The translations under genes and the position numbers were made by a program. A stretch of 55,719 nucleotides of DNA, from the IMG/VR virus record IMGVR_UViG_3300033141_003115, positions 1-55,719 of that record; one strand, written 5' to 3'. The stretch is from a virus. Lineage: Duplodnaviria > Caudoviricetes. Each line of letters begins with the position of its first letter. Positions within the stretch are counted from its first letter, which is position 1. Below the pieces are notes generated by a model. It made no database searches and was not told where the DNA came from. It saw only the letters and a list, made by a program, of their open reading frames with translations. Below, in pieces: positions 20,101 to 55,719 of the stretch.

Positions 20101-20866
20101 CGTAAAATGCTTTTGCTACATTAAGAGGAGTTTCACCAAATTTTACAGCTAACGATAATCCAGCTTGATTCATTATATCTACAATGTTAGTTAACTCATT
20201 GCCCATAACTGTAAGACGATAACTTGTTTCTTCCATTTCATCATTAATAAGAGACCATGCATTGTAAATTTCTCGATTATAATCCATAAAAGAATCTAAC
20301 AAAGGACCAAATACTTTTAACATAAGCCATATGTTCATAAATTGCATAAATAACTGATACTGAAACCACTCAAACGCTTTGAAAACTTTTTCTAATCCAC
20401 TGCGCAAAAAATCAAGCGCCTTTGTAACTAATGCAAAAGGCGCTTTTACCACAGTCCAAAGACCCTTAAATAATGTATTTATAGTGACCCTAATTCGACC
20501 AATAGTAACAATAATATCACTAAGAACAGATAGTAACCCCTTAAATCCACCAACTACTAAATCTATAGGATTGGCTAACTTAATTATTTCAATAGTTGCT
20601 ATTTTAACTAAATCCAAAAACGATCTTACAGAAAGACCTGCTCTACGCCATTGCTGTGTTGTCCCCTCTGTAGCTTTATTTAACCCTTGAATCGTAGTAG
20701 CAGCCTTTTCAATCGATTTATTAATCTCACCAAAAGCAGTATTAAATGTCTCAGTAATAGCTGCAGCAGCTTGCTGAGCTTCCCGAACTATATTAACAAA
20801 ATCCGATATTACTCGCTCATATTCGAGAACTATTTGAGCAGTTAGTTCATTCTGTTCCAATTTCAA
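11108..20866 (-). CDS. Tail tape measure protein (~3250 aa)
   Basis: Very long and helical, with a TP901-type core (AKAFYDALSAG, VKIGIIRYEEL, LEELGVRAYDLRGEFRGL) and hydrophobic TM-like segments. Lies downstream of the tail tube and chaperones. TTG start at 20866, or 20860 by SD spacing. Confidence 0.93.
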   Translation of the reverse strand: MKLEQNELTAQIVLEYERVISDFVNIVREAQQAAAAITETFNTAFGEINKSIEKAATTIQGLNKATEGTTQQWRRAGLSVRSFLDLVKIATIEIIKLANPIDLVVGGFKGLLSVLSDIIVTIGRIRVTINTLFKGLWTVVKAPFALVTKALDFLRSGLEKVFKAFEWFQYQLFMQFMNIWLMLKVFGPLLDSFMDYNREIYNAWSLINDEMEETSYRLTVMGNELTNIVDIMNQAGLSLAVKFGETPLNVAKAFYDALSAGIAVSDMFYTVEQSMKAARAGVTSVDIALKGGIQAMYAFGLSAKNLTEIFDAQFEAVKIGIIRYEELVSVMGRVYQSAASLGGQMERLKETYYSIAFLTRVGLSPEMGAFGLARLYEELANPDTIRALEELGVRAYDLRGEFRGLLPVIQDLTNSLAGFSTEAQERMLTAVGFDMRAIRVLRAMVNNFAEFSRIAQQYEQEVGGAMESAYEKQIKAVSFAMERLKASWEAFKISVVEAASDAIQSFTEIGISLLNAGSMIIKKYDSLLSNFAKFASLFYGSFAVLALVAGVVRGLLTPFGLLSSAFAVLIYQAQQGTEFFEAFSERFPLLGEAVRIAAIGIQQFVDAFTQGKLELIPTIFMNITNAILGLFAQVPSIQRLRDAILDFYNNLMGFIQGIDTITIPILARKFGNILRAIANVIKDAVISLFGLEDFEGTITDFVRKMLVMVYDSIMEMFSGIFGVEGRMTLPDLLLEFGVILGLYIKTPEGKYKFNAAGVSEFILTVLELALENVLRILRGWDFVLLIAELKFVFSAIKLLLGGQLISTITRAASAAGQSPALMQLLQKIGFGIKAGTAAFLATDIILRLIPGEFQEWMQKHRTVMIFVELALAVTATTFIRQIGALISRSVGTQLFPILVSVIGRAFPWALLGAGAIYAITKLASILGDKTQEQLDEAFGAVYNSFMERVTNIEQIRAKVGKELSVVEAATLVAYKVLEEEHDETQKLIDIYREEKTKVIDDINAIRLSREEVTAGLRRAGMLKAPRVSARADWQPLSVKMESYVEELRQQGYEIKDTQAVMTEAARNIEAVASQSTDTVVMANNTAEEVNEILTTQYFPEVHALVDQIDTLSRSTNEHVKQLLVSDQELVNDIEQSVEGLVDSVRNMRVEDALGKISEIRARIAELRDKFENQYKEIRKIDPQINSTLETAERNLNELNEKITKIQIGLAGDISLFLRSLAESMGIALDTDLEQQAELSAEEIKRRIIEGTINIVERAFGERLWRSIFEGFLLNIQDIFDISIGELGEVTIGTYKYEPSEVAAKRAITSLVSFAQQNFGTSFRESTGMLFDDVFNKAVIEPMTKFINSVREQIEDIADPDKRSEVTKLLGDLEKAVADVQKAIAEGAWGDVQSKISKMLDLAYKTLSETDKKRLQEFGDLVKSIDNMFIQYGDDFIKIMKNMLHIRVGGAETVRAVLYMTALKAPEAVKDLLDKFVNGQKAVLSAIEDMRSTVEEQENQMVNDVLKELLGISVEIEEIPSVEATEWQAIAEFAMQNLSAEVLKQLKELLGIQEDNIKALALGLQQGYEEGLSIVKDLVRVYYSSKAVEASKKLLGSLIRKYFGQEDILQSLALEAGLTPQDELKKAMDDFINQFEDLYNEGNEVVIKYVNDAKAMYDELQRMIQAGEIQGEELDKSIKGFIGFLQLLTFALQRSTGKVSAEETTSAYRDTWQRWQDQVQNVLNEQINFAQIFVEQILETGFDLEEFVEELGTTQEDLLKVLQAQGYAKPDETLLGALRRQVQEGNQDIIDFILGNILKPTINRLLGDVIKVLHESGTDILAELIAGMSREEFDKELEDARRRAEALMEKNKVLSMAILRSLDDIEAEANKVGGNFAAAALSLIKITSILDIIYNVENDLLNDIRNRLEQTRNQLQIEVDYLSQGFDQISFTTQDIVTLIDTYGEDFKEWIRKLAEKHEIVVTDIVETAKVLAQEDASVAQEMEELLEPIWRREFLKSLQEVYAEHGLELPTEIDSVKRDINSQLNEIRDMLSDMSEQDKKSFEQELEALQDEYIRLESIVSTRERLFQLKEFSDHLSNNVLPRAREAKNNWNDVLNKQKQLQNSVDQKLQDLESIKLNIEEIFNIPLNITDKVIEEVRNLFTPEEWEAVWGEIASYKDLDVAKLQKLAEVDPKAKEMLKNIIKKQAKEQVQADLEALAKSISDEGKRALAEAFGIDTLDVLKVKLQRYREEYERLLPPESKRRADYGKILQHWFDKMEEAIKEDQLAVAQEYAAMIEEFLQFVRSESEDTADEIRSVDYTQIRENYEKISNAISNALDLLRTALQKGYDFIIEKFGNDITNLINGFKSGVSQGYMNLMDQITETVETAITKETTATLSERLVTESGQKAIALAQKRIESLLYAINLSYTTTLKEMNALAQHIEDLQNALTSASDSDRERIKAEIEQAQVQYKALDIEVKTLDKVYTELLALAKGEIKSIDDLSQETKAFLIEYGTRLRDVLRIERFEEAYINLKNALKTGLYTTLNNFLDDLRRAFADVRDEMDIDDLVQEQLSQIPRSELPLIITKLSDVVQSASSDVVSQLVDQYTSDLDKLLSLAQVRGKLTEGDVRETLTNVWEAWRTAFSGILSTDTLNQIKKYIDRFIAEGQFDVISLGTFVTTLRGYVYTELETWIQNNFEAIRKALETGDVSQLTDEQKKFLLVLFDVYGTKIKDWVSETQDAIEGINFRGIFDPETLFGTLENTVGQINMDFVQWLRDFQTDRTSKIDYIMESLSDAIDVMYVQLSRDIIDIQKKYGEGTQEWIDALQSLSEKYGVEILDPQTKKIKELSKAEFVAVIRAHVEELLEILSREGEITEAQLTEMGSWVIPLLKLLQAIFGDLAEASQDIAEMLKDLDFDRFISRLRTVAFDVQDMKQELEQIFAETDEAKLSDIIGEYANTAIEVLAIEIMDRVQDLRERYSKDTTKFKQELARLSQEYGIDLVTWLETYGADQAALQNELRSRFDTEWATLRTLLEQGNKQAIISYLMEHQEFAQFIIDAYQRNKEQINEAERELQEQQQAIRNAFTGFLDSLTDFLTTLGNTFPSMQDATSKIVQAINIISNTATRMMELQAAAQTALASQTLIGTVAGSLGWVGVGLLFIGGLMQIFNLFNQSQEQETEAIQNHLSALERNTVALEALTDILSRMRATLYNAPSEFGYAFVPASAMTPAIAPAGVPASVTVTVNVNGQGGIPDSDIDKIARAVENSVRRVY

Positions 20867-28839: not shown

Positions 28840-29098
28840 TATATCCCTCCTCTTGAACATCAAATTCTTCGTGTTGCAAAATTGTAGTTAAAATCATATC
28901 AAAAACCTCTGATGTATCTTTTACATAATCATAATAACTATCAATATCCTCGAAGGAGTAAGCATCTATAAGCTCTCCTTCTTTTAACAAATTCAATAAT
29001 TTTATATAATCTTGAAGTATTAATGCAACATTTTCCAAAGCCGACTTACCAACAAAAACCATGTACACATCATCTTTTTCATTATCAATCATTATCAA
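28829..29098 (-). CDS. Hypothetical acidic protein
   Basis: Overlaps both neighbours, consistent with translational coupling. Confidence 0.6.
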   Translation of the reverse strand: MIMIDNEKDDVYMVFVGKSALENVALILQDYIKLLNLLKEGELIDAYSFEDIDSYYDYVKDTSEVFDMILTTILQHEEFDVQEEGYNGK

Positions 29099-29693
29099 GA
29101 AAATCTCCCAAAACTCCTACCATATACTTCGTTAACTCTTCCCACTTTTGTACTGTATTTTTTTCTCGATCATTAAGCAACACATCTAAATCTACCACAG
29201 CTAATGTCTGCTCCACTATGAACTCAAGCAATTCTTCATCAATAGGAAAGCTATTATTAAGCTCCTTCACCAAAGATTTTATAAGAAATTCCAAGGCAAA
29301 TGTACTAAGAACATCCCACTGTTCTCTTTCGTCAGCAGAAAGTATCTCCTCGAACGGAGGAACTTTCATACCAAAATGTTTATAATGCCCAGCAAGATGC
29401 CTATGTACACGTTTCTTTACAGACAGAGGAATAAGAGTTCTTTTCAATCTCTGCATCGCTGCTCTGACTCCACCTTTAACAACAGTTAATTTTCCATTAA
29501 TCATTTTATGATGTGGCAAATGATAATCAGCTTTTCTTTCACTACCCTTTACATATGCTCCACAAGCCTTTCCAAGCAAAGACCATCCACCTTTGTTCAA
29601 AATCGCATTGCCATCTCTAGCCCAATCCCAATTCCATTCAGAATTATCAGAACTGGGAGTATTTACTACTGGGGGTACAACATAATCTGCCAT
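29085..29693 (-). CDS. Head-module protein with basic LPHH...HLxxHY domain
   Basis: SD GGGAGG and ATG 29693. The motif YHLPHH...GGVRAA...HLAGHYKHFG is one I recall from phage head-region proteins. Confidence 0.7.
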   Translation of the reverse strand: MADYVVPPVVNTPSSDNSEWNWDWARDGNAILNKGGWSLLGKACGAYVKGSERKADYHLPHHKMINGKLTVVKGGVRAAMQRLKRTLIPLSVKKRVHRHLAGHYKHFGMKVPPFEEILSADEREQWDVLSTFALEFLIKSLVKELNNSFPIDEELLEFIVEQTLAVVDLDVLLNDREKNTVQKWEELTKYMVGVLGDFLDND

Positions 29694-29714
29694 GCTACAC
29701 GCCTCCCTTAACAA

Positions 29715-37022: not shown

Positions 37023-37550
37023 ATGTCAAATAAGTATCAGCAACAACACGACGACTTAGACATGGAACTATATTACAGTTTTATTCCTTTTGTGGTAAAA
37101 TCGTGGTTTTCGAGACATAATTATTCAATAAATTTGAAAGATTATTTAGATGACATTGTCAGTGAGTTATATTTAATGTACAAAACAGAAGATATATTTG
37201 AGCGATTACAATTACGCTGGCCAGAGGATATTGGTATGTGGTATGTTATTTTCTTTTATAGAGTGCCTAAGGCAATAAAGAATGCTATACCCAATTTTGA
37301 GTTATTAGATGAATTGCCTTATAATCAAGGTCAAGATGATGAACATGAAGCATTATTATTCGAAGAAATCTTAAATGGAGATATATTTACATCAACAGAA
37401 GGAAACATTCTATCGGCAGCATATTTATATTATATCAAATCATACTCAAGAAAAGATATAGCAGAAAAGTTTGAAGTTTCTGTTTCTACTGTGGGAAGAT
37501 GGCTTGATCAAGCTAAACGGATTCTTAAAAAAATTTTCTGGGAGGAATGA
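37023..37550 (+). CDS. Sigma-70-like factor (region 4 HTH)
   Basis: C-terminal YSRKDIAEKFEVSVSTVGRWLDQAKRILKK and region-2-like LDDIVSELYL. Confidence 0.65.
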   Translation: MSNKYQQQHDDLDMELYYSFIPFVVKSWFSRHNYSINLKDYLDDIVSELYLMYKTEDIFERLQLRWPEDIGMWYVIFFYRVPKAIKNAIPNFELLDELPYNQGQDDEHEALLFEEILNGDIFTSTEGNILSAAYLYYIKSYSRKDIAEKFEVSVSTVGRWLDQAKRILKKIFWEE

Positions 37551-45230: not shown

Positions 45231-46505
45231 ATGCAGGCAACTTTGATATTATCAGCGTTCATGCAATATCCACATTATTTGCGATTGTTAGATTCGATGC
45301 TCTTAAAAGGAACATCCAAAGAGAGTGCAGAATTAAGTTTTTTCTTAAGTGTTTTATATAATAAGTATAATCAAGCTAAGAAGGCTTATTATACGATAGA
45401 TAATTTAATTATTGAATTAGAACAAATTGATTTAGGTTTAACTTCAGAACAACGTGATTTGTTTCGTAAGTTCTTGATGAATGTTCCAGATGAATCAATG
45501 TCTGAAGATCAAGCAGATGAAATTATTAAAGAATTTCTATTCTATACAGCAACGAAGCATGTATTACCTACAATGTCCAAAGATAAAGGTGTATCTTATC
45601 TGAACAAATTATATACAGCACTAACATATGCACCTAAGCAAAGTATTTTACTCAGCCTGAAAGAGGATATTAATCAGATACAGGAAATTTACTCAACATT
45701 AGAAGCTATGAGAGAATTTCCAACAGGATTACCCCAGATTGATGCTGCACTACAAGGAGGCCTTGGTCGCGGAGAATTAGGTGTATTACAAGCCAGCACA
45801 AATGTCGGAAAAAGCTGGTATCTATTGAATGTAGCGCATATTAATGCCCGTAAGGGACATAATGTAATTTTTGTCTCTCTGGAAATGAGTGAGCGAGAAA
45901 TATTAAAACGTTTGGCTACATTAGTTCTGCATGTATCTTCAGTATATATAGAAACATATGGAACTAAGATTGCTGAACTTATGGCTGATTATGTTCAGAA
46001 TGAATTAAAAGGTAATTTGTATATTCTTCGTAGTGCTCCTTTTGAAATGAGTATATATGATTTTGAAAAGAAGTTAGAGCAATTAGAATTGGTAAATGCT
46101 TTTCCTGATTTAATAGTATTGGATTATGCTGATCTATTTCGTATGGGTAATGGCATGCTTTGGGACGAATTGGGGAAATTGTACGCTCATTTACAGCGTT
46201 TAGCTTTACATTATAATGTAGGAATTTGGACTGCATCACAATTAAATAAAGAAGCCATGAAACATTCAGATCGTACAGGATTGCAGTATACATCTGGATC
46301 AATTGAAAAAGTTAATCGTGCTGATATAGTTATACATATTGAAGTTCTACCTGATGGCTCACGTCGAGCTCGTATAGTTAAGTCGCGTCGTAGTCGAAAA
46401 GCTATTGAACAGATACTTATTCCTGATTTTGAAAGTGGAGATTTAGTAGGATCATCAGATCAAACCAAATTAGTTGATACGTTTGATTTGGATAAATTTG
46501 TTTAG
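45231..46505 (+). CDS. dnaB: Replicative helicase (DnaB/gp41-like)
   Basis: ASTNVGKS, FVSLEMSE, IVLDYADL and WTASQLN. Start moved to ATG 45231. Confidence 0.92.
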   Translation: MQATLILSAFMQYPHYLRLLDSMLLKGTSKESAELSFFLSVLYNKYNQAKKAYYTIDNLIIELEQIDLGLTSEQRDLFRKFLMNVPDESMSEDQADEIIKEFLFYTATKHVLPTMSKDKGVSYLNKLYTALTYAPKQSILLSLKEDINQIQEIYSTLEAMREFPTGLPQIDAALQGGLGRGELGVLQASTNVGKSWYLLNVAHINARKGHNVIFVSLEMSEREILKRLATLVLHVSSVYIETYGTKIAELMADYVQNELKGNLYILRSAPFEMSIYDFEKKLEQLELVNAFPDLIVLDYADLFRMGNGMLWDELGKLYAHLQRLALHYNVGIWTASQLNKEAMKHSDRTGLQYTSGSIEKVNRADIVIHIEVLPDGSRRARIVKSRRSRKAIEQILIPDFESGDLVGSSDQTKLVDTFDLDKFV

Positions 46506-46516
46506 GAGGTGTAAAA

Positions 46517-48874
46517 ATGCAATGTAAAGATTGTGAAATTTTGAAAACATTGAGTAATATACCTGAGAGTATAAAAATTATTCCTGCTGATATTGTGATA
46601 GTTGTACCTACATCTGAAAACTTAAAACATGTCGTTGCGCAAGCATTAGTACATCAATTGCGATTACATTATTCGGATAATGATAAGATACATTTAACGA
46701 GCTTATATAAATGTCCTGTTCAGCGTAAACTTACTAAAACACAGTTGCGAAAATGTCTGCCTATATTACGTAAAGAATTGGAGATATTGAAGCCTAAGTT
46801 CATACTTGTCTTTGGTGCAGATGCTGCGTCTGTGATTTTGCAAGATACAACAAAAGCTCGATTGTTTAATGTAGCTCATTATTCTTCTGAATTTGATGCA
46901 TATATTATACCTTTGTATACGTTAGATATGTATCAGGAAAATACAACTTTACGCGCAAACCTTCTGAAGAATATTATCCAAGTATTAAACTCTCCCACAG
47001 AAAAGCCTATGAATATTGAGTTGCTCATGGATGAGCAAGAAATCATAGATATGCTTACAGCATTAATTCATAGTACTGAAGATAAATTTGCATTTGATGT
47101 AGAAACTACTGATTTAGATATCTGGAAACCCGACGCTAAAATATTAACCTGTGCTATTGCATTTAATAATAAAGGGTATGCTTTCCCTATACAAGCCACT
47201 GTAAACGGAGCTTCTGTTATTGATAGTTCTAAAGTAATTTCAGTACTAAAACAACTTATGAGCACTAACAAGGTTAAGATTGGACATAATATAAAATTTG
47301 ATATGAACGCCTTAAAGCAGATTCTTGATATCGATGTAAGCATGCCCATTGCAGATACGATGATTATGCATTATACTATTAATGAAGAAACTCGAACACA
47401 CAGTCTTTCTGCATTGTTAGGACTTTTAGGTTTAGAAGATCATAAGCAATTTGATTTATCATTATTACAAAAAACATTACCTAACGCTTACTTATTGAAG
47501 CAGCTTTTGGAATATAATGCTAAAGATGCTTTAGCTACATTGTATTTACACGATTATTTATTGACAAAGATGGAGCCTCATAACAAATTAGTAACTAAGA
47601 TGCTTTATAATGTGACACATGTATTACATGACATAGAAGTACATGGATTTGCAGTAGATGTACAACGCTTACATAAAGTGAAAAATGAATTAGAACAAAC
47701 AATTTCAAATATTGAAGCTAAATTAAAATCTTATGATGTTATTGAAAAAGTTAAACAAGAACTTAATATTGATGATATAAATCTAAACTCTCCTCAACAA
47801 ATAGCTAAAATTTTTGAATTATTAAACCTACCTGTGATTCAAACGACTAAGACAGGGCAAATATCAACGGATAAGCAGACACTAACATATTTAGCTGAGA
47901 ATTATAATATAGAATTTGCGAAAGACTTACTGCAATATCGTGAATTAAATAAGATTATGCAGACATATGTTATTCCTTATTTGGAGAATGATATAGTAAA
48001 GAATGGACGTATCCATCCTACATATAATGTAACAGCTACAGTTACAGGAAGATTGAGTTGTTCTAATCCCAATCTTCAGCAGATTCCAAGAAATGCATTG
48101 ATAAAACAGATTTTTGTTCCAGATAATGATAATCATATACTTGTTAATATAGATTATAGTCAGGCTGAGCTCAGAGTTATGGCTATGTTATCTGGGGACG
48201 AAAAACTATCTAAAGCATATATTGAAGGTATTGATGTACACCGTCAAACTGCAGCTTTAGTATATAATAAACCTATTGATCAAGTTACAGATGAAGAACG
48301 TCAACTTGCGAAAATGGTTAATTTTGCTATAATCTATGGAAGTACACCTCAAGGATTAGCGAAACGGCTGAATCGGACTGAACAGGAGATGGTTCAATTT
48401 GTAAACACCTGGTTCAAAATCTATCCCGCGGTAAAAAGATTTGAGCATCAAGTTTTAATTACAGCACGCACACAGAAATATATTATGACTCCTTTTGGAC
48501 GAGTACGTCATCTTCCACAAATTGATTCGGATAATGCACAAATACGAGCACGTACTGAAAGGCAAGCAATTAATTACATCATTCAGAGTACAGCTGCTGA
48601 TTTTACGTTATTATCATTGATTCAGATACATAAATTATTAAAAGGAATGGATGCATATATTGTAAATACTGTACATGATTCTATAATGTTATCAATAAAT
48701 AGGAAGTTAGTATCAAATTTATTACCTCGTATTAAGTTGTTGATGGAGTCTTATGATTTTTCCTGGATGCGTGGAATTAGTCTAAAAGTAGATATATCAA
48801 TAGGTAAGAATTGGGGAGAATTAATAGAGTTAGACTCTTTAGATGATCTGGAAGGAGTGTTGAGTCAGCTATGA
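46517..48874 (+). CDS. polA: Family A DNA polymerase with 3'-5' exonuclease and N-terminal UDG-like domain
   Basis: Exonuclease motifs FDVET, GHNIKFD, YNAKD; polymerase motifs TGRLS, DYSQAELR, AKMVNFAIIYG, VHDS. Confidence 0.95.
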   Translation: MQCKDCEILKTLSNIPESIKIIPADIVIVVPTSENLKHVVAQALVHQLRLHYSDNDKIHLTSLYKCPVQRKLTKTQLRKCLPILRKELEILKPKFILVFGADAASVILQDTTKARLFNVAHYSSEFDAYIIPLYTLDMYQENTTLRANLLKNIIQVLNSPTEKPMNIELLMDEQEIIDMLTALIHSTEDKFAFDVETTDLDIWKPDAKILTCAIAFNNKGYAFPIQATVNGASVIDSSKVISVLKQLMSTNKVKIGHNIKFDMNALKQILDIDVSMPIADTMIMHYTINEETRTHSLSALLGLLGLEDHKQFDLSLLQKTLPNAYLLKQLLEYNAKDALATLYLHDYLLTKMEPHNKLVTKMLYNVTHVLHDIEVHGFAVDVQRLHKVKNELEQTISNIEAKLKSYDVIEKVKQELNIDDINLNSPQQIAKIFELLNLPVIQTTKTGQISTDKQTLTYLAENYNIEFAKDLLQYRELNKIMQTYVIPYLENDIVKNGRIHPTYNVTATVTGRLSCSNPNLQQIPRNALIKQIFVPDNDNHILVNIDYSQAELRVMAMLSGDEKLSKAYIEGIDVHRQTAALVYNKPIDQVTDEERQLAKMVNFAIIYGSTPQGLAKRLNRTEQEMVQFVNTWFKIYPAVKRFEHQVLITARTQKYIMTPFGRVRHLPQIDSDNAQIRARTERQAINYIIQSTAADFTLLSLIQIHKLLKGMDAYIVNTVHDSIMLSINRKLVSNLLPRIKLLMESYDFSWMRGISLKVDISIGKNWGELIELDSLDDLEGVLSQL

Positions 48875-49776
48875 TAGATGTAAAATTGTTGGAAACAAAG
48901 CTCAAAAAGCGGCGTGTAGCTAAAGGTGGAGAAGAAGTAGTCTTTATATGTCCTTTTTGTGAACGCAATGGTATGGGACCTGATCGACGAGGACATCTTT
49001 ATGTTAATAGTATCACAGGACAATTCATTTGTCATCGTTGTGGTGAACGAGGATCATACAAAACATTATTATGGTTATTACAACTACCGTATCAAAATAT
49101 AGCTATAACATCTGATATTGTGTTAGTACAAGAGCTTGATGATTTTTCACAGTTATATGTGAAAGAAGAATTGAATTCAGCATTTAAGTCATTTCGATAT
49201 TTAGATAAGAATCATGAAGCATATAAATACTTATTGAATCGAGGACTTACCTCAGATGATATCAAGCTATATCACTTTGGTATTTTTACTGATAAAGTTA
49301 AAGATTATGTTATTATTCCAATTATACATCAAGGACATTGGGTAACTTGGCAGGGAAGGGCTTATAAATCCACAGATAAGAAACGACGATATTATAATCC
49401 ACCCAATAGTCAGTTACATAATTATGTTTTCAATTATGATTTAGCCAGTATGTATAAGCATGTTATTATAACAGAAGGTATATTTGATGCAATATCTGCT
49501 GGGCATAATGGAATAGCTACATTCGGAAAGACATTAAGCAAGAAGCAGATATATCTTATAGTAAATACGTGGCCACAGGTGATTCTTGCTTATGACAGAG
49601 ATGCACAGAAGGAACAAGAACACATTGCTCGACAGTTATGTAACTACATTGATGTGTATATGTTTGATTGGAAAACAATTGATGATTCTATTAAGGATTT
49701 GAACGAATTACTTATACACAGTTCAAAAGATGATATACAAAAAATGCTTAAGCAAAATATTGTTAAATATTCTTAA
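48871..49776 (+). CDS. dnaG: DNA primase (zinc finger + TOPRIM)
   Basis: CPFC...CHRC, YLLNRG, ITEGIFDA and LAYDRD. Confidence 0.9.
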   Translation: MIDVKLLETKLKKRRVAKGGEEVVFICPFCERNGMGPDRRGHLYVNSITGQFICHRCGERGSYKTLLWLLQLPYQNIAITSDIVLVQELDDFSQLYVKEELNSAFKSFRYLDKNHEAYKYLLNRGLTSDDIKLYHFGIFTDKVKDYVIIPIIHQGHWVTWQGRAYKSTDKKRRYYNPPNSQLHNYVFNYDLASMYKHVIITEGIFDAISAGHNGIATFGKTLSKKQIYLIVNTWPQVILAYDRDAQKEQEHIARQLCNYIDVYMFDWKTIDDSIKDLNELLIHSSKDDIQKMLKQNIVKYS

Positions 49777-49817
49777 TTCAAATTGTAAAGTTATAGACAT
49801 AATAATCATATTTTTTG

Positions 49818-49826
49818 TGTTATAAT
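49818..49826 (+). promoter_or_regulatory. Extended -10 promoter candidate for the accessory cluster
   Basis: TGTTATAAT upstream of SD AAGGAGG and GTG 49850. Confidence 0.55.
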
Positions 49827-49849
49827 TAAAAAGGAAAGGAGGAAAAAGC

Positions 49850-50734
49850 GTGAAATTCATTTTAATAGGAGGTGTTTTGATAGTGAGTGTATTGACATCT
49901 GGAGCAGATACTTGTTATAGGAAAACATTACAGGATTACTTGGTAACGCATTTATATTTATCTGAAAAACGAGCTCAAGAACTTCTTGATGGTATATATG
50001 ATGGTATCGAAGATGCTAAGGAATTTAATTCTATTATTAAAGTACATCCCATAGAAATGATTGCTATTTTAGAAGCTGAAAGTTCTGGTAGAAACATTAT
50101 GGGAGATAAAGGCACAGCCGTAGGATATTTTCAACTTCATTGGGAAGCTATTTGGTTTGTTTGGAGTTATTTCCCACATTTGAAGCGGGAAGAGTTTAAG
50201 AAAAAACCTTTAAATGTATTCATAGATTTTCCATACACACAAGCTCGATTAGCTACATTGTATTTATACTTACTAAAGCTGCAATTTGGTGATGATGCAT
50301 ATAGTGCATATAATGGATGGAATGATGCATATGCAGAACAGATTAGAGAGAATATCAAACGTATCACAGATTATTGTACGGAAACTTTTGGGCCTGTTTT
50401 AGTGCTTACAGATACTTTACCTAAGGAAATATTTATGCCTGCTGAAGAACAAACAGTTTTTATAACTCCTGTTACAACGCAAGATGTTTTAGCTATGTTG
50501 CCTCAGTATAAAGTGTTTGGTGATTTTGCTTATGATGGAGTTAAAATTGCAATAGAGAGATTTTTGGATATTAAAATTGATCCTGTACCAGATGATTTGA
50601 AGATGGATGAAAATGTAACATTGGTTAAATGCAGTTATTCTATAATAGAGACATATGACTATGGAGATTATATAGATGGCTACCCAGCAATTGATGATGA
50701 AGAACCTAAATTTCATATATATGAGATTCTGTGA
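49850..50734 (+). CDS. SLT-type lytic transglycosylase with N-terminal hydrophobic signal and C-terminal DUF1874-like domain
   Basis: AILEAESSG (catalytic Glu), AVGYFQL and SAYNG. The C-terminal ~113 aa follow the DUF1874 pattern. Confidence 0.7.
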   Translation: MKFILIGGVLIVSVLTSGADTCYRKTLQDYLVTHLYLSEKRAQELLDGIYDGIEDAKEFNSIIKVHPIEMIAILEAESSGRNIMGDKGTAVGYFQLHWEAIWFVWSYFPHLKREEFKKKPLNVFIDFPYTQARLATLYLYLLKLQFGDDAYSAYNGWNDAYAEQIRENIKRITDYCTETFGPVLVLTDTLPKEIFMPAEEQTVFITPVTTQDVLAMLPQYKVFGDFAYDGVKIAIERFLDIKIDPVPDDLKMDENVTLVKCSYSIIETYDYGDYIDGYPAIDDEEPKFHIYEIL

Positions 50735-51123
50735 GGGATGATATGATGTTGCTAAAAATAGAAACATTTATTTTGATGTCTTGGTTTATAGCTTTTCTTT
50801 CGGCACGATTGACAGTATATTTCATGTTTAAATCTCTGGATGATTTAGCGTTTGATGATATAGATGCTTTACATAAGCATGATTTTTGGGGACGTTTTTT
50901 TGCTGCTGTTCTTATGATTTGTTCATTTGGATTATTCAAGTATCCTTTTCCAGAGTTTCTCAATGAAAATGGTACAACACATAAAGAAAACTTTGACACT
51001 GAAATAGATGAAATAGTAATTTCAATCTTATCGGATTTGTCTGATAAACAAATTGAGGATATAGTTACCATGGCTAAAATACGTAGAGAATGGAAACAAT
51101 TGAGAGATGATGATAGTGTGTAA
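50731..51123 (+). CDS. Membrane protein (2 TM helices)
   Basis: Two hydrophobic stretches and an acidic C-terminus; overlaps the SLT stop codon. Confidence 0.6.
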   Translation: MRDDMMLLKIETFILMSWFIAFLSARLTVYFMFKSLDDLAFDDIDALHKHDFWGRFFAAVLMICSFGLFKYPFPEFLNENGTTHKENFDTEIDEIVISILSDLSDKQIEDIVTMAKIRREWKQLRDDDSV

Positions 51124-51478
51124 AATTTTGAACACATTATGGCACATGATTCAAGACTTCTTTTATGTTCGGTTACGGATGGCATTTTTAACACGTCGTT
51201 ATTATCGTTGTGTTCAGATTCAGTTCATTCAGTGGTTCTTGCAGCAGCAAGCGAAGCACACAGATAATATAACTGAATTTGCTACGTATTTATATATGTC
51301 TGAAACAAAGGCTTATGATTTGATATCAAATACAACTTATTTATCTCTCAAGGATATGGTACGTATAGCTTTTCTATTAGGATATAAAATTGTATTACGC
51401 TTTGAACCTTTAAGTGAATGGGAAATGCAAGAAATTGAAGAGTTACGTGCCAAATTGGATGGAAAGTTTAATTCATAA
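51107..51478 (+). CDS. XRE-like HTH protein
   Basis: NITEFATYLYMSETKAYDLIS...LSLKDMVRIAFLLGYKIVLRFEP. Confidence 0.65.
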   Translation: MMIVCKILNTLWHMIQDFFYVRLRMAFLTRRYYRCVQIQFIQWFLQQQAKHTDNITEFATYLYMSETKAYDLISNTTYLSLKDMVRIAFLLGYKIVLRFEPLSEWEMQEIEELRAKLDGKFNS

Positions 51479-51491
51479 GGAGGCTGATATT

Positions 51492-52367
51492 ATGTTTGAG
51501 AAAGCAGGTATACGAAAATTTTATGATTTTTATAATCAGTGGAAAGATTTCGTGAATGGCGCACCTGTATTTGAAGTTCGATGGGATATGTTTCCAGAAA
51601 GCTCTAAACCCGAAACAATTATAATGCGTTGGCGTCCTGAAAATAACCCAGTACATTTTGATGATGGAGTACTTGTTCCTGATAAAAAAACAATAACCGT
51701 ATTAACCAATATTGAACTAATAATTAAAAGAAAATCTGATTTAGACAATATGGCAACTTATCTTGATACAAAACTTCAAGTCACTAATATTTGGATGACC
51801 TATAAGCTACAAGAAGACAAATTTATACCTACATTGATATCATGGGATTGGACACATTACTATCTCTTTGAATATTGTCTATCTAATGATCGAGATATTG
51901 AGGTGCCACCGTGGTTTTTTGATTTTCTTAAGCATGTTTTTCAGGTAAAAGTTTACCAGACTGGAACAAACATAGAACAATCTACATTTAATTTTGATCC
52001 AGATGAGTTAGTAGAAGCAGTTGTAGAATTCTACGAACAGAATAAAGATAAAACAATTATTTATGGTAATTATGATGATTTCAATGTATGGATGCTTTTG
52101 AATGATATCACATATTTGAATTTCCTTGAAGGTGTTGCACGTTTTAAAACTATTACAAAACTTTCAACAAATGCGGTTTCTTCTATACAAGCTGAAGCTA
52201 CATGGCACGAACAGATCACAGCGAATTTAATTGAGTCTGATAAGAAATTGGAGCCTGTAACATACACCTTCTTGAAAGATACATATTCTATTAAAAAGTG
52301 GCCAGCAACAATTATAGAAGGAGTTAATTTAGCCAGTATTTTACGTGAATTATACTTTGGACGGTGA
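51492..52367 (+). CDS. Hypothetical protein
   Basis: SD AAGGAGG and ATG 51492. Confidence 0.75.
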   Translation: MFEKAGIRKFYDFYNQWKDFVNGAPVFEVRWDMFPESSKPETIIMRWRPENNPVHFDDGVLVPDKKTITVLTNIELIIKRKSDLDNMATYLDTKLQVTNIWMTYKLQEDKFIPTLISWDWTHYYLFEYCLSNDRDIEVPPWFFDFLKHVFQVKVYQTGTNIEQSTFNFDPDELVEAVVEFYEQNKDKTIIYGNYDDFNVWMLLNDITYLNFLEGVARFKTITKLSTNAVSSIQAEATWHEQITANLIESDKKLEPVTYTFLKDTYSIKKWPATIIEGVNLASILRELYFGR

Positions 52368-52394
52368 GAAGATGATTAAAACCGAAGGAGTGAT

Positions 52395-52742
52395 ATGATA
52401 ATGCTATATATTACGGATCATATATGGTCTGTATTAAAAAAACGACGTTTATATGATGTATCTATTTTGTCTATTACTGAAGCAGAGGCCCGATGGATTG
52501 TTGATCAAGCCAAGAAAATACAGTGGATTATTTTTGATGACACATTGAATAATGTATTGACACATAAATTTGGCCGTAGTATCCGATCTGCAAAACAACA
52601 TATAGAATTAGGTAATGAAGACTGGGCTATAGTAATAGATTATACAGGATCGCCTTTGACAGCTACAATGACGGATATACCTGAAGATGGGTGTTTGAGG
52701 TATTGGTTAATAGTCGTAAAGGAATATAAGGAAAATGTATGA
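52395..52742 (+). CDS. DUF1874/AcrIII-1-like protein, apparently degenerate
   Basis: MLYIT...SITEAEAR...VLTHKFG...IELGNEDWAIVIDYTG...IPE...RYWLIVV matches family length and spacing, but the GH motif is absent. Confidence 0.6.
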   Translation: MIMLYITDHIWSVLKKRRLYDVSILSITEAEARWIVDQAKKIQWIIFDDTLNNVLTHKFGRSIRSAKQHIELGNEDWAIVIDYTGSPLTATMTDIPEDGCLRYWLIVVKEYKENV

Positions 52743-52779
52743 GTGTGATTCTAATGCCATAATGAAAGGAGGCTTAAAA

Positions 52780-53052
52780 ATGTTTAAATTAATTATTAAA
52801 ACGTGTTTAACACTATTAAAATTAATAGTACTGAGTATTTTAAAATTCATTAAATTCGTATGCAGGCGTTACCGTGTACCTCCTCACAGATTAGTAGATC
52901 ACGTATGGACTTCTTCACATACTGAAGCACAAATTGCAATGCAGAAATTTGCTCAAATCAAAGACCCTATAGTTGCAGAAAAGCGTAGTTACAGACATCT
53001 AATAAATCATTATAAATTATTTAAAGATGATACAGATTTGTTTGGTGATTAA
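52780..53052 (+). CDS. Small basic protein with amphipathic/hydrophobic N-terminus
   Basis: SD AGGAGG and ATG 52780. Confidence 0.65.
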   Translation: MFKLIIKTCLTLLKLIVLSILKFIKFVCRRYRVPPHRLVDHVWTSSHTEAQIAMQKFAQIKDPIVAEKRSYRHLINHYKLFKDDTDLFGD

Positions 53053-53144
53053 TGTATACATGTTTTTAGAAACTCATCTAAAGTTATAGATAATCATGAG
53101 GACCTTATTGAAACATTATCATATTTTGCAAGGAGGTGAATGAT

Positions 53145-53519
53145 ATGTCCAAAAGAAAACGTGTAAGAGTTCAATTAGATACAGAACCGTTAGAAAAACT
53201 TGTAAAGCTCACAGAAAAGTATAAGTACAAACGTTCAAACGGATGGAAATCTGTACCAGAAAGAGTAGCACGGAAGATTGTGCATGATTATTCTAACTAT
53301 TGGATCAATGTAATAGAGTCTGCAGGTCTTAAATTTGATTCTGAAAAGTATCTAATAAGAATGCCACAAATTAAGGTTTCGCCAGATATTGATAAGTTGG
53401 TATTTAAAATTCTACCACCACTATCATATTTAAGTTATAGTCCTGGAGTAGATGATACATTACCACCTAAAACATGTGAGTTTGATTCTGAGAAAGTTTT
53501 TGTAAAAAAGGAAGAATAA
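53145..53519 (+). CDS. Hypothetical basic protein
   Basis: SD AGGAGGTG and ATG 53145. Confidence 0.7.
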   Translation: MSKRKRVRVQLDTEPLEKLVKLTEKYKYKRSNGWKSVPERVARKIVHDYSNYWINVIESAGLKFDSEKYLIRMPQIKVSPDIDKLVFKILPPLSYLSYSPGVDDTLPPKTCEFDSEKVFVKKEE

Positions 53520-53531
53520 GGAGGGATTTAT

Positions 53532-53909
53532 ATGATTGCGCGTGTTTATGATGGACAAGGTTTTGTGAAAGGCACTTCTGGTACATGGGAATTCATATTA
53601 CGGAAAGAAGATTCAACGCATATACGAATTGATTGGTCATTAGATTGGATCGACGTTTATATTGAAAACAGCTTTATAGCTTCTATAACATCTCAAAGTG
53701 TATATGTTAAAGGGTCATATACATATTCAGAGGAATATAGTATTTCAGAAAAACAATATAAGTTGCGTATTGCAGACTTATTCGAAATATCGTATACCAG
53801 GGGCAAATATCCTACTAATGAACTTGATTGGATTTTGTACGTTTATAGTATAGATGGTGATTTATGGCTTGTTGTCAGCACAAAAGATAAGTCGAAAGAA
53901 GATGAATAA
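53532..53909 (+). CDS. Hypothetical beta-rich protein
   Basis: SD AGGAGGG. Confidence 0.7.
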   Translation: MIARVYDGQGFVKGTSGTWEFILRKEDSTHIRIDWSLDWIDVYIENSFIASITSQSVYVKGSYTYSEEYSISEKQYKLRIADLFEISYTRGKYPTNELDWILYVYSIDGDLWLVVSTKDKSKEDE

Positions 53910-53910
53910 G

Positions 53911-54390
53911 ATGGAGAATACATCAAAGTTAAGTATAGTACATGATTTACTTAAGATTGGAGCTTCTTTAGATGATTTAAATCCTGATCTTGTTCGGGAA
54001 GCTTTATATGAAGCCTGTGAGCAGACTATTAAGGAACAACCTAAGCAAAGAGAACTAATACGCAAATTGGCGAGCAATAAATTACTACAAAATATAGCTC
54101 GTTATTTTAATGGGGATGTTATTTTATGTGGATCAGCTTTAGCCTTGGATACACCGCGAGATATTGATCTAAGATTGGTATTATCTGAAAAAGATTTTAT
54201 TACATTTTTCGGAAGCGCAGACAAATGGACAGGACAAGGTCAAACAGGAGATTGGCAAACAGAACGCTGGATTTGGGCACGGATTTGTGCTTTATTAAGT
54301 TACTTGCTTTCCTCTGAATTAGACTTGAATATAGATTTTCAGATAATTCCGTATTCAGTGGTTGGTGTAAAAATTGATTTTGTTGATTAA
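53911..54390 (+). CDS. Minimal Pol-beta-type nucleotidyltransferase
   Basis: VILCGSA...RDIDLRLVL (GS + DxD) and a third Asp in NIDFQI. Start is uncertain (53902 or 53911). Confidence 0.7.
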   Translation: MENTSKLSIVHDLLKIGASLDDLNPDLVREALYEACEQTIKEQPKQRELIRKLASNKLLQNIARYFNGDVILCGSALALDTPRDIDLRLVLSEKDFITFFGSADKWTGQGQTGDWQTERWIWARICALLSYLLSSELDLNIDFQIIPYSVVGVKIDFVD

Positions 54391-54415
54391 TCTATAATTG
54401 CTTTTATAGTCTGTA

Positions 54416-54736
54416 ATGGGGGTGAGTGAAATGTTAAAATCACACTCGTATAATGTAACAGAATTCTTGAGTCAATATAATGTACCAGATGAGCTACTCG
54501 AATTTTTACGTTCTTATACCGAATTAGATGTAGATATTCAAATAAATCCTGAAGGTTATGAGCCTGGAGTTTATCTTTGGGTAGGAAATGAAGGTAAATC
54601 CATTGTACTGATTAAAGTCAATGATGATATTTTCTTCTCAGAGATAGGACAATGTTGGTATCGGAATAAACTACGAGATAAATCTCCTTCTATGATTCAA
54701 GATGGAGTTATTCAGTTTGCCACTAAATTGCAATGA
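54416..54736 (+). CDS. Hypothetical protein
   Basis: ORF packed in the operon; the true start may be the ATG at 54431 after GGGGGTG. Confidence 0.6.
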   Translation: MGVSEMLKSHSYNVTEFLSQYNVPDELLEFLRSYTELDVDIQINPEGYEPGVYLWVGNEGKSIVLIKVNDDIFFSEIGQCWYRNKLRDKSPSMIQDGVIQFATKLQ

Positions 54737-54765
54737 TTTGTGATGAGTTGAGGAGGTATACCAAA

Positions 54766-55131
54766 ATGGACTTGTCCAGTTCACAGAATTGTAAAGGTGT
54801 AGATTATATCATCTATGACTATGCTTATCAAGAATGGATTGCAGTAGTTACCTATGATGATAGAAGAACTGCATATCACATTGATTATGATGACGATAAT
54901 GATGTTCTATATGTATCCATAGGAAGAGCTTGTCCAGGTTATGGTGATGTGATTAATGATAACATAATAGTGCGTAGAAGTTTTAAGACTCAAAAGGTTG
55001 TAGGATATACATTTGTATGGTTCAAAAGTTTATTAGAAGATGATCAATTTTGGATTATTCTGAAATCTTTGCCACGAGGAGAAGAAATATATGAAGTTAT
55101 TAAAGCGTTTCTATCTGTGCATAAAGTGTAG
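54766..55131 (+). CDS. DUF2283-domain protein
   Basis: IDYDDDNDVLYVSIG...IIVRR...VVGYTF. Start moved to ATG 54766. Confidence 0.75.
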   Translation: MDLSSSQNCKGVDYIIYDYAYQEWIAVVTYDDRRTAYHIDYDDDNDVLYVSIGRACPGYGDVINDNIIVRRSFKTQKVVGYTFVWFKSLLEDDQFWIILKSLPRGEEIYEVIKAFLSVHKV

Positions 55132-55145
55132 AGGAGGTGAATATT

Positions 55146-55694
55146 ATGATAGAGAGTGTTTTGAAAGAGTTGGATATATTAGTTCCTACCTTAATTACAC
55201 GATTGGAAATATGGGAATCATTATTAACTTTCTTGAGTAAAAACGAAGAAACCAAGGCTTGCTATGAAGATTTATTGTATGTGTTTGACTGTTTAGCTTA
55301 CATATATGATGCAGCGACCTCGGCAACGGAGGATGAAGACTTAAAAGAAGATTTTGATGTGACAGCAGAACTGCTTTGGGATATGGTAGAGAAAGTTCGA
55401 GAACAGCAGAACAAATCAGAGGATAATTTGGATATAGATTATGATGCCGATGGTGATGTATTATACATATCTTTAGGAGAGTCTCGTAAAAGTTATGGTG
55501 AAACAGTCGGTGATTGTGTTGTAATTCGTCGAGATTCTGAAACTAAAGAAATAGTTGGATATACAATCGTAGGATTGCGTAAATGTATGGATTCTGGTAT
55601 CCTATGGAGAGAGTTAAAATTAGCACCAGAAGGTGATAAAATTAGGGATATTATTGAAAAATGGAATAAAGATCAAATTTATCGAGTTGAATAG
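55146..55694 (+). CDS. DUF2283-domain protein with helical N-terminal extension
   Basis: IDYDADGDVLYISLG...VVIRRD...IVGYTI. Start moved to ATG 55146. Confidence 0.75.
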   Translation: MIESVLKELDILVPTLITRLEIWESLLTFLSKNEETKACYEDLLYVFDCLAYIYDAATSATEDEDLKEDFDVTAELLWDMVEKVREQQNKSEDNLDIDYDADGDVLYISLGESRKSYGETVGDCVVIRRDSETKEIVGYTIVGLRKCMDSGILWRELKLAPEGDKIRDIIEKWNKDQIYRVE

Positions 55695-55719
55695 ATAAAA
55701 GCGCACGCATTTATCGAAT

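Follow-up and report, generated by a model that had tools for sequence, protein, structure and literature searches.

The window analysed here, a 55.7-kb stretch of DNA, is a fragment of a novel siphovirus-like phage and is about 38% complete. Structural genes are on the minus strand, and replication genes, up to those for PolA and primase, are on the plus strand. Downstream of PolA and primase, positions 49850–55694 contain 12 small, tightly packed and co-directional plus-strand frames (Table 1); the contig ends 25 bp past the stop of the last one, and the end of the tail genes lies off the contig. We regard these genes as real because eight of the 12 have a 6-nt Shine-Dalgarno (SD) match, and because the first three genes differ by 11 substitutions from a near-identical metagenome contig (L005; 99.1%), nine of them synonymous. 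The frames listed in a preliminary description of this region are thus confirmed, all on one strand. Among the starts given there, 51492, 52780, 53145 and 53532 each lie 8–9 nt downstream of a 6-nt AAGGAG, but 54416 has no such match and 54431 is the likelier start. The GC content per gene is 0.29–0.35 in the block and 0.315–0.385 per 2 kb across the window; the composition of the block is that of the remaining phage, and there is no compositional island.

The block had been placed behind a single promoter candidate. In the 73-bp gap downstream of the primase gene there is indeed an extended -10-like TGnTATAAT, and a GGAGG ribosome-binding site comes after it, but no good -35 was found for it; moreover, a consensus scan of the region, which has no entry for this sequence, gives sigma-70-like sites at chance level (45 observed, 42.6 ± 6.6 expected).

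Table 1. Features of the 49850–55694 block and its upstream gap. Genes are named in the text by their first coordinate.
Feature	Coordinates	Strand	Basis or remark
Extended -10-like TGnTATAAT	49818..49826	+	Read directly
Three-part protein, 294 aa, lysozyme-like/lytic-transglycosylase fold	49850..50734	+	Hydrophobicity, AF2, fold searches
Membrane protein, ~126 aa	50743..51123	+	Kyte-Doolittle scan
Small ORF, start uncertain (51107, 51146 or 51179)	51146..51478	+	HTH ORF of the preliminary description
Protein with no assigned function, 291 aa	51492..52367	+	AAGGAG 9 nt upstream
Divergent DUF1874/STIV_B116-like (AcrIII-1) family protein, 113–115 aa	52395..52742	+	phmmer, hhalign
Protein with N-terminal hydrophobic segment and ~60-aa domain, 90 aa	52780..53052	+	SD match
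Protein with basic N-terminus, no assigned function, 124 aa	53145..53519	+	SD match
Protein with no assigned function, 125 aa	53532..53909	+	SD match
Protein with Pol-beta nucleotidyltransferase-type signature, 159 aa	53911..54390	+	Motif CGS-x9-DID at 54127
Acidic protein with no assigned function, ~101 aa	54431..54736	+	ORF
DUF2283-domain protein, paralogue A, 121 aa from SD-supported start	54766..55131	+	PF10049, phrog_36767 (ORF start 54733)
DUF2283-domain protein, paralogue B, 182 aa	55146..55694	+	PF10049, phrog_36767 (ORF start 55137)

Gene 49850 and its membrane-protein neighbour

The 49850 protein begins with a hydrophobic signal or anchor segment (residues 1–19), followed by a lysozyme-like/lytic-transglycosylase-fold domain (residues ~20–180) and a 114-residue C-terminal domain (residues 181–294) with no recognised fold and pLDDT below 40 in the AF2 model; block means in that model are 75–87 for residues 21–80 and 131–180, and 39–70 for residues 81–130. 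In a VIA-wide fold comparison the best 16 rows (Z 10.1–7.1) are all wall or chitin glycosidases, including lytic transglycosylases, GH19 chitinases/endolysins, glucosaminidases and muramidase effectors, with the caveat that helical models may attain Z of ~13 through chance arrangement. Residues ~20–180 share the fold of MltC (4c5f), Slt70 (1qsa), MltE (4hjy) and a phage endolysin (9ms7), with Z scores of 9.7–7.9, and the top Foldseek matches are Slt70 (first, E 0.33) and MltC. The hydrophobic N-terminus, E75, E77, S78 and a GYFQL stretch are conserved in all four homologues, and searches of the window turned up no further wall-hydrolase domain. By its predicted fold, 49850 is a signal-bearing lysozyme-like wall enzyme and not an antidote.

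The 50743 protein contains two hydrophobic segments, a strong one and a weaker second one that scores ~1.44 (derived by hand from the sequence, and under the 1.6 threshold), and an acidic C-terminal tail. Searches of Pfam and PHROG gave no family match, and all three substitutions relative to L005 are synonymous. Hydrophobicity and position suggest that it is holin-like, and because this small membrane protein gene adjoins the wall enzyme gene, the two may constitute a lysis-type or wall-remodelling pair. Like endolysins and lytic transglycosylases, 49850 starts with a hydrophobic segment of export type and has a gene for a small membrane protein next to it; unlike enzymes of the lysozyme-like superfamily, it has no Pfam SLT match at E≤10, carries the added C-terminal domain, and is sited after the primase gene. 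Siphovirus lysis genes usually lie downstream of tail genes, and the position of 49850 in the replication/early column could instead indicate an enzyme outside any lysis pair, either a transglycosylase associated with the virion or with entry or one that is secreted for a different purpose, with 50743 unrelated to it, for example as a superinfection-exclusion factor. Tail and baseplate proteins are among the fold matches (e.g. VIA ranks 29 and 37), and the C-terminal domain is missing from two 65%-identical relatives of 177–178 aa (P0003 and P0004), as this alternative might predict. We nonetheless consider it unlikely, as the cleavable-looking or anchor-type N-terminal segment kept in all four homologues suits export over packaging, and 50743 is directly next to 49850 with overlapping or adjacent frames.

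Gene 52395 and the AcrIII-1 family

The preliminary description proposed two DUF1874-like domains, and only one of these survives. The C-terminal part of 49850 is rejected, as the family profile gives 4.3%, but 52395 is retained through remote homology: a phmmer search among 1.84 billion sequences gives a full-length match (E 6.1e-4) to P0007, a bona fide PF08960 protein (E 9.5e-17), and hhalign against a profile of 120 DUF1874 family members gives 96.1% (E 2.9e-9). The DUF1874 profile gives at most 2.3% for 11 of the 12 ORFs in the block. The Atlas lead for 52395 is PF08960 at 0.83 and 0.81, and Pfam PF08960 itself gives no match at E≤10.

His47 is absolutely conserved in AcrIII-1/DUF1874 according to 10.1101/778746, from which the roles of the cA4-holding residues are also assigned. 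The His column contains 118 H and 2 Y among the 120 members and is F47 or D48 in 52395, which keeps 10 of 41 family-conserved columns and has 31 changed; the DUF1874 alignment (A2) consists of relatives of one single member with at least 44% identity to it, and therefore overstates family-wide conservation. The substitutions include R66 to K, Q81 to D, the lid arginine R86 to P, and E89 to A, and the N8 and S11 equivalents are D and W respectively. 52395 is therefore not a canonical ring nuclease. It is small, stand-alone and virus-encoded, like viral ring nucleases such as SIRV1 gp29, with full-length remote homology and a YTG...L...P core, but unlike AcrIII-1/PF08960 ring nucleases it falls under the Pfam threshold and has Phe or Asp in place of the catalytic histidine. 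Homologues with a mutated H47 were excluded from the tree in 10.1101/778746, so that such variants were seen there and not studied.

The His-less 52395 protein would no longer cut cA4, and any defence evasion would be through binding of a ligand or a host protein. A DUF1874 protein can act via binding of a host enzyme (10.1101/2023.01.10.523387), and a non-nucleotide role is thus conceivable for 52395. We think it improbable that 52395 still dampens cyclic-oligoadenylate signalling, whether as a non-cleaving sponge using the DUF1874 dimer pocket or by other catalytic chemistry. The full-length homology, the retention of T50, G85, L88, P96 and the YTG stretch, and maintenance of the gene with the same substitutions in one close relative (P0001; 90% identical and likewise His-less) are consistent with such activity, but the changes extend beyond His47 to the cA4-holding residues, and host-enzyme binding offers an alternative.

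Nucleotidyltransferase motif, DUF2283 pair and remaining ORFs

A G-S...D-x-D signature is the mark of the MNT/Pol-beta superfamily. In 53911, G-S, nine residues and D-I-D lie downstream of a hydrophobic strand, and this GS-x9-DID motif turns up a single time among 28001 six-frame ORF residues; of 20000 shuffles, 74 contain it. The signature resembles that of the MNT of HEPN-MNT modules (PF01909/Pol-beta superfamily), but 53911 has no HepT/HEPN partner and carries an N-terminal extension of ~65 aa, helical in a low-confidence model (AF2 pLDDT 45). No Pfam match at E≤10 and no phage match were found, and the best Atlas matches (0.94) are to unnamed viral clusters, with NTP_transf_2 only at 0.82–0.83. 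The MNT-like enzyme proposed here previously has the motif but no profile match, and we count it among the calls that do not stand.

The two terminal genes share a DUF2283 core, as the preliminary description stated. Paralogue B scores 23.0 bits against PF10049 by hmmscan, equal to the cut-off, and 26.1 bits in a six-frame search; paralogue A is below the cut-off of 23 (17.1 and 19.3 bits respectively), but is clearly related to B (38% identity over 77 aa, E 1e-19). Both match phrog_36767, a phage family of unknown function (E 6.5e-6 for A and 4.5e-9 for B). At 2–4 times the length of the 49-position domain, both carry long N-terminal extensions (~95 aa and acidic in B) and share an extra C-terminal stretch of ~40 aa. 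DUF2283 is a putative antitoxin domain, and DUF4258-DUF2283 two-gene modules in bacteria and archaea are predicted toxin-antitoxin pairs; to our knowledge the domain has no known biochemistry. The phage pair differs from these modules in being a tandem duplicate belonging to phrog_36767 and in having no DUF4258, which PMC11980606 lists among RelE/ParE-type families as uncharacterised. Neither DUF4258 nor HepT/HEPN was found in six frames of the window, and no toxin came up when the 12 ORFs were scanned with Pfam, which upholds the statement that there is no recognisable toxin.

An XRE/antitoxin-like HTH had been assigned to 51146, and is undetectable: the ORF has no Pfam HTH, the best match being the Tnp_P_element HTH at E 0.12, and the sole HTH_3 match in the window is at 37443, outside the region. 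None of its three possible starts has an SD match, and searches of PDB and phage sequences gave nothing. For 51492 the best matches are at chance level only (Consortin_N, E 0.026; PADLOC gop, E 0.02), with no phage tblastn match, and 53145 and 53532 have no family match in Pfam, PHROG or PADLOC. The ~60-aa domain of 52780 is paralogous to a head-module ORF on the minus strand at 29085–29714 (31% identity over 61 aa, E 1e-8). 54431 has no Pfam family match; a SUKH/SMI1 identity considered for this protein found no support on checking. In all, seven of the 12 genes carry no assignment, and five to six ORFans are left without an assignable role.

Nature of the block

The region had been described as a counter-defence island built from six antidote-type domains, of which three stand (two DUF2283 and one DUF1874) and three do not. 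The DUF2283 genes are a tandem duplicate, which leaves just two verified antidote-type families that are independent of each other, a number that is not above chance. No PADLOC or PHROG anti-defence family matches the ORFs above chance level, and phrog_36767 is the only PHROG match that exceeds it. We favour, with a probability of about 0.6, a heterogeneous 12-gene accessory block where the replication/early genes on the plus strand of a novel tailed phage come to an end, with no demonstrated single-purpose island. The block combines a wall enzyme, a distant AcrIII-1 relative that has lost its general-acid histidine and most cA4-contacting residues, and a terminal DUF2283 tandem without a partner toxin in the window.

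The clustering of antitoxin-type domains without toxins fits the island model and counts against a mixed block, as do the seven genes with no assignment.

A stronger form of that model, a coherent operon of orphan antidotes (AcrIII-1-type, MNT-type, DUF2283 mimics and an HTH antitoxin) each directed at one host defence, with the ORFans also anti-defence, seems to us a poor prospect. It accords with the presence of genuine, toxin-less DUF1874-family and DUF2283 genes, the rarity of the nucleotidyltransferase signature, and the close packing of the genes on one strand behind the extended -10-like site, but the calls of a further DUF1874 domain and of an HTH fail, the 52395 active site is lost, the first gene encodes a wall enzyme, and the antitoxin role of DUF2283 is putative, the literature found for the term not showing it. 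A coherent counter-defence island is thus a candidate only, and the stretch has the look of an ordinary accessory block of mixed content.

Phages are documented to use orphan antitoxin-type genes against host defences, and orphan antitoxin-like enzymes are proven in this role (PMC11257639). The DarG1-like NADAR enzyme AdfN described there embodies the same concept, a phage-borne antitoxin relative without a toxin, with activity shown against a named toxin, whereas any such role in the present block is putative. The DUF2283 pair and the nucleotidyltransferase-motif protein are plausible candidates for host-interaction or antitoxin-mimic genes.

Genomic setting of the right-end gene block

The virus record is linear and estimated to be about 38% complete, and PHROG matches indicate a siphovirus-like layout. 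The region under study, 49850–55694, spans from the primase gene to the right contig end and is filled by 12 co-directional frames, named here by their start coordinates. No tRNAs were found in the window. The tape-measure gene encodes 3,252 aa, implying a very long tail, and its PhageMin_Tail match is only N-terminal (residues 240–430). In PolA the PHROG DNA-polymerase match begins at residue 36, and the region N-terminal of the exonuclease/polymerase part looks uracil-DNA-glycosylase-like by eye.

Coordinates and attributes of features in the 49850–55694 block and elsewhere in the window
Feature	Coordinates	Strand	SD match	Description
Structural genes	~33.3 kb to left end	-		terminase, head protease, major head protein, tail completion, tape-measure, tail-tip/fibre (PHROG)
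Tape-measure gene	11108-20866	-
Head-module gene	29085-29714	-		unannotated, 209 aa; adjoins gene in portal position
Replication/recombination column	from 33.8 kb	+		helicase, UvsX-like recombinase, SbcCD, RusA, DnaB (PHROG)
Sigma-like gene	37023-37550	+		175 aa
HTH_3 match	37443-37502			weak
PolA	46517-48874	+		PHROG
Primase	48871-49776	+		PHROG
Extended -10-like site	49818-49826			TGnTATAAT
49850	49850-50734	+	6 nt	predicted wall-enzyme fold
50743	50743-51123	+	4 nt	small protein with hydrophobic segments
51146	long frame 51107-51478	+	none (51146/51179)
51492	from 51492	+	6 nt	291 aa
Cluster of changes in L005	51558-51572			near start of 51492
52395	52395-52742	+	6 nt	DUF1874 family
52780	52780-53052	+	6 nt	small membrane-anchored protein
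53145	from 53145	+	6 nt
53532	from 53532	+	6 nt
53911	53911-54390	+	none	NTase motif
Pol-beta signature	54127			within 53911
54431	from 54431	+	none
54766	long frame from 54733	+	6 nt	DUF2283 paralogue A
55146	long frame from 55137	+	6 nt	DUF2283 paralogue B

This phage has very few counterparts in public collections. Neither megablast of INPHARED with 46000–55719 nor tblastn with four block proteins gave a match among 50,697 phage records, and four IMG/VR queries returned nothing beyond a single 98% fragment that ends within the primase gene. The JGI metagenomes contain one 1,938-bp contig (L005), whose positions 1–1938 correspond to window positions 49777–51714 at 99.1% identity, and a search of GTDB genomes with the DUF2283 pair gave no match. 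Relatives of the block beyond near-identical fragments were thus not found in the phage, IMG/VR, JGI and GTDB searches.

Six-nucleotide Shine–Dalgarno (SD) matches (AAGGAG or AGGAGG, 4–10 nt before the start) precede 8 of the 12 genes, and the starts proposed in the preliminary description for 51492, 52780, 53145 and 53532 coincide with SD-supported starts. Comparison of L005 with the window gives 11 substitutions in the first three genes, nine of them synonymous. Changes in L005 are clustered near the start of 51492; the first 74 codons of this gene have three amino-acid changes, and nearly all changes in the genes beside it are synonymous. The small protein encoded by 52780 has a domain of ~60 aa in common with the unannotated head-module gene (31% identity, E 1e-8), and neither has a Pfam match.

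The 73-bp gap 3' of the primase gene contains an extended -10-like site and a GGAGG site. A scan of the region for sigma-70-like sites found 45, about what chance predicts (42.6 ± 6.6). The phage encodes a sigma-like protein of its own (Sigma70_r4_2, 27.6 bits, above the cut-off), and sigma-70 consensus scans may therefore miss its promoters. GC content per gene is 0.29–0.35, the same as in the remaining phage, so composition carries no mark of foreign origin.

Library searches assign little of the block. Pfam at E≤0.1 identifies DUF2283 in the last two genes only, together with three chance-level matches, and extending the search to E≤10 for eight ORFs added nothing relevant. PHROGs likewise assigns these two genes alone, to phrog_36767, a family of unknown function; PADLOC gives one chance-level match (gop, E 0.02, 13.2 bits), and NCBIfam weak noise only. 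PDB sequence searches with six proteins left five without a match at E<0.01, and the sixth, 54431, gave a chance-looking RNA polymerase match (E 0.0044). SUKH/SMI1, an idea for 54431, was set aside as there was no PF09346 match.

A DUF1874-family gene with an altered active site

The 52395 protein gives no match to PF08960 (cut-off 26 bits) at E≤10, either by hmmscan or in a six-frame search of the window, and a word-indexed protein search returned one relative, P0001, with 90% identity. A phmmer search of 1.84 billion representatives gave four matches, two of which are artefacts due to proteins with MBG or G5 repeats; a protein of 108 aa, P0007, is matched full-length (E 6.1e-4) and is itself a clear PF08960 member (E 9.5e-17). 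We compared the ORFs by hhalign with a family profile built from an alignment of 120 listed among 321 P0007 relatives at E≤0.001. The 52395 protein scored 96.1% probability (E 2.9e-9, 110 columns) and the other 11 ORFs 0.1–2.3%. An Atlas feature search pointed to the same family (PF08960 clusters, 0.83 and 0.81), a result that we treat as no more than a lead. The phmmer chain through P0007 and the hhalign result, with all other ORFs at or below 2.3%, establish at the level of sequence comparison that one DUF1874-family gene is real.

Two such domains had been proposed; the one in 52395 is upheld, and the second, taken as the C-terminal 115 residues of 49850, was rejected. The latter scores 4.3% by hhalign against the family profile, BLASTP gives no match between the 49850 and 52395 proteins, and the AF2 pLDDT is below 40 in the C-terminal part.

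The AcrIII-1 paper (10.1101/778746) describes His47 of SIRV1 gp29 as an absolutely conserved general acid, with H47A reducing activity more than 2,500-fold, and R85 as the lid lock; it lists cA4 contacts by R66, N8, Q81, S11, T50, S49 and N13, and reports that H47-mutated homologues were taken out of the authors' AcrIII-1 tree. Among the 120 listed family members, the corresponding column is H in 118 and Y in 2; at this position the 52395 protein has F47 when aligned by hhalign and D48 when aligned by MAFFT. It keeps 3 of 8 invariant family columns (G85, L88 and P96) and, of the 41 columns with at least 80% conservation, 10. Changes include R66 to K, Q81 to D, R86 (P0007 numbering) to P, G90 to T, G46 to I or F, N6 to D and S9 to W; T50 is kept in the hhalign register only. 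The cA4-contacting side chains R66, Q81, lid R85, N8, S11 and T50 do not occur as a set in the 52395 protein, and all of its active-site states are present in P0001.

Judged by these residues, the active site is gone and 52395 probably encodes a catalytically dead AcrIII-1-fold protein, for which a ring-nuclease annotation is not justified. According to a later preprint (10.1101/2023.01.10.523387), the close homologue SIRV2 gp37 has a second activity, binding a host lysine methyltransferase and inhibiting it, so that the DUF1874 fold can work without nucleotide cutting. Which DUF1874 residues are family-wide might be refined with the extended-data alignments of the AcrIII-1 paper.

A wall-enzyme fold, a DUF2283 pair and an NTase motif

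A word-indexed protein search with the 49850 protein found three relatives. Residues 1 to ~178 constitute a stand-alone unit in two of these (P0003 and P0004, of 177–178 aa), indicating that the C-terminal domain is an addition. All four substitutions relative to L005 in this C-terminal part are synonymous, and residues 181–294 are therefore under purifying selection. These 114 residues are fused in this phage and in a 93% relative, and are missing from the 65% relatives.

A hydrophobic signal-like segment opens all four sequences of 49850 and its homologues. An AF2 model from the four-row alignment is confident at residues 21–80 and 131–180 (10-residue block means of pLDDT 75–87), with block means of 39–70 in the middle (81–130). 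Foldseek places Slt70 and MltC at the top, weakly (E 0.33–0.78). In a VIA-wide search, which does not depend on Foldseek, the best 16 matches have Z scores of 10.1–7.1 (3w6b 10.1, MltC 9.7, then 9.1 and 8.8) and are by title lytic transglycosylases, GH19 chitinases/endolysins, glucosaminidases and muramidase effectors, with phage endolysins lower in the same list. Because the model is helical, and Z up to ~13 is possible by common arrangement alone according to the tool's caveat, the wall-enzyme call is made at the level of fold.

The hallmark of SLT domains is a catalytic Glu followed by Ser, plus a GLMQ-like motif. E75, E77, S78 and G92-Y-F-Q-L96 are invariant in 4/4 homologues of 49850, and we tentatively liken E-x-E-S and GYFQL to these motifs. 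A six-frame search of the window with Pfam SLT (PF01464) gave no match at E≤10, nor did the window yield a further domain of the wall-hydrolase type. The modelled fold, strengthened by the two invariant stretches, suggests that 49850 encodes a lysozyme-like/lytic-transglycosylase wall enzyme rather than the antidote it had been counted as. The product of the adjacent gene 50743 is small and has an acidic tail and two hydrophobic segments, of which one is strong and the other weaker. From the fold, the export signal and the position of the two genes next to each other we infer that they form a lysis-type pair.

The proposal of two DUF2283 genes at the end of the block is borne out. A six-frame search of the window with PF10049 (Pfam cut-off 23 bits) gives two matches: 55146 reaches the cut-off (23.0 bits, and 26.1 bits in the six-frame search) and 54766 lies below it (17.1 and 19.3 bits). 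The two proteins are paralogous (38% identity over 77 residues, E 1e-19), with homology reaching ~40 residues past the Pfam core and an N-terminal extension separate in each; the pair therefore counts as a single acquisition that was then duplicated in tandem. We take DUF2283 to be an antitoxin-type domain; such a role is not established in the literature found for DUF2283, and no paper was found under COG5428. Neither DUF4258 (PF14076) nor HepT (PF01934) matches in six frames of the window at E≤10, in agreement with the earlier observation that no toxin is recognisable, and since the contig stops 25 bp after the last gene a downstream toxin partner is possible. The FseA/QseM family presumably carries another DUF number. 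PMC4755241 applies the name DUF2283 to FseA/QseM regulators of integrative elements, and PMC11980606 lists DUF4258 as an undescribed RelE/ParE-type family.

The MNT-like assignment of 53911 is sustained at the level of motif and not of profile, as PF01909 (NTP_transf_2) has no match in this gene or in six frames of the window at E≤10. The Pol-beta signature is hG[GS]-x(7-13)-Dh[DE]h, and CGSALALDTPRDIDL in 53911 fits it (hGS-x9-DhDh). The six-frame ORFs of the window, 28,001 residues in all, contain this signature a single time, and 74 of 20,000 shuffles of the 53911 protein produce it. The Atlas entry of this protein starts at residue 20 of the long frame. Viral clusters without names are closest to it there (0.94), and NTP_transf_2 clusters come up only at 0.82–0.83, sharing few features with it (89–93). 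A single-sequence AF2 model has a mean pLDDT of 45, too low to use.

The XRE-type HTH proposed for the 51146 long frame finds no support in sequence searches. HTH_3 (PF01381) has no match there, its single match in the window being weak and outside the region, and hmmscan at E≤10 returns only a Tnp_P_element HTH (E 0.12, 13.2 bits). A PDB search gave nothing relevant, and tblastn against phage records gave no match.

Interpretation of the block

We consider it most likely that 49850–55694 is an ordinary heterogeneous accessory block ending the early/replication column. Its members would be the putative lysis-type pair, the AcrIII-1-fold protein that has lost catalysis, the orphan DUF2283 protein in two copies, the protein with the NTase motif, and some six ORFans.

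An alternative explanation is a multi-target counter-defence operon, in which a non-catalytic DUF1874 sponge or protein inhibitor would act together with duplicated, extended DUF2283 proteins as antitoxin mimics directed against DUF4258-type toxins of the host, and with the NTase-motif protein as an MNT-like neutraliser. We regard this as improbable, at odds of roughly one in eight; if it were true, the interspersed ORFans would be a source of new anti-defence families. The broader model of the preliminary description, a counter-defence island of orphan antidotes, is a less likely alternative that corresponds to a known strategy (PMC11257639) but rests on little, as the verified domain calls amount to two independent families.

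At present the analysis serves above all as a correction: of six domain calls made here on phage ORFans from sequence patterns, three were right, a fourth stands as a motif, and two fail. The accessory genes are true ORFans, resolvable by bench screens only. Proof that host systems are disarmed by the His-less DUF1874 protein and by the DUF2283 pair would carry the orphan-antitoxin strategy to families without known biochemistry and, in the case of the DUF1874 protein, would mean that the AcrIII-1 fold is reusable without catalysis.
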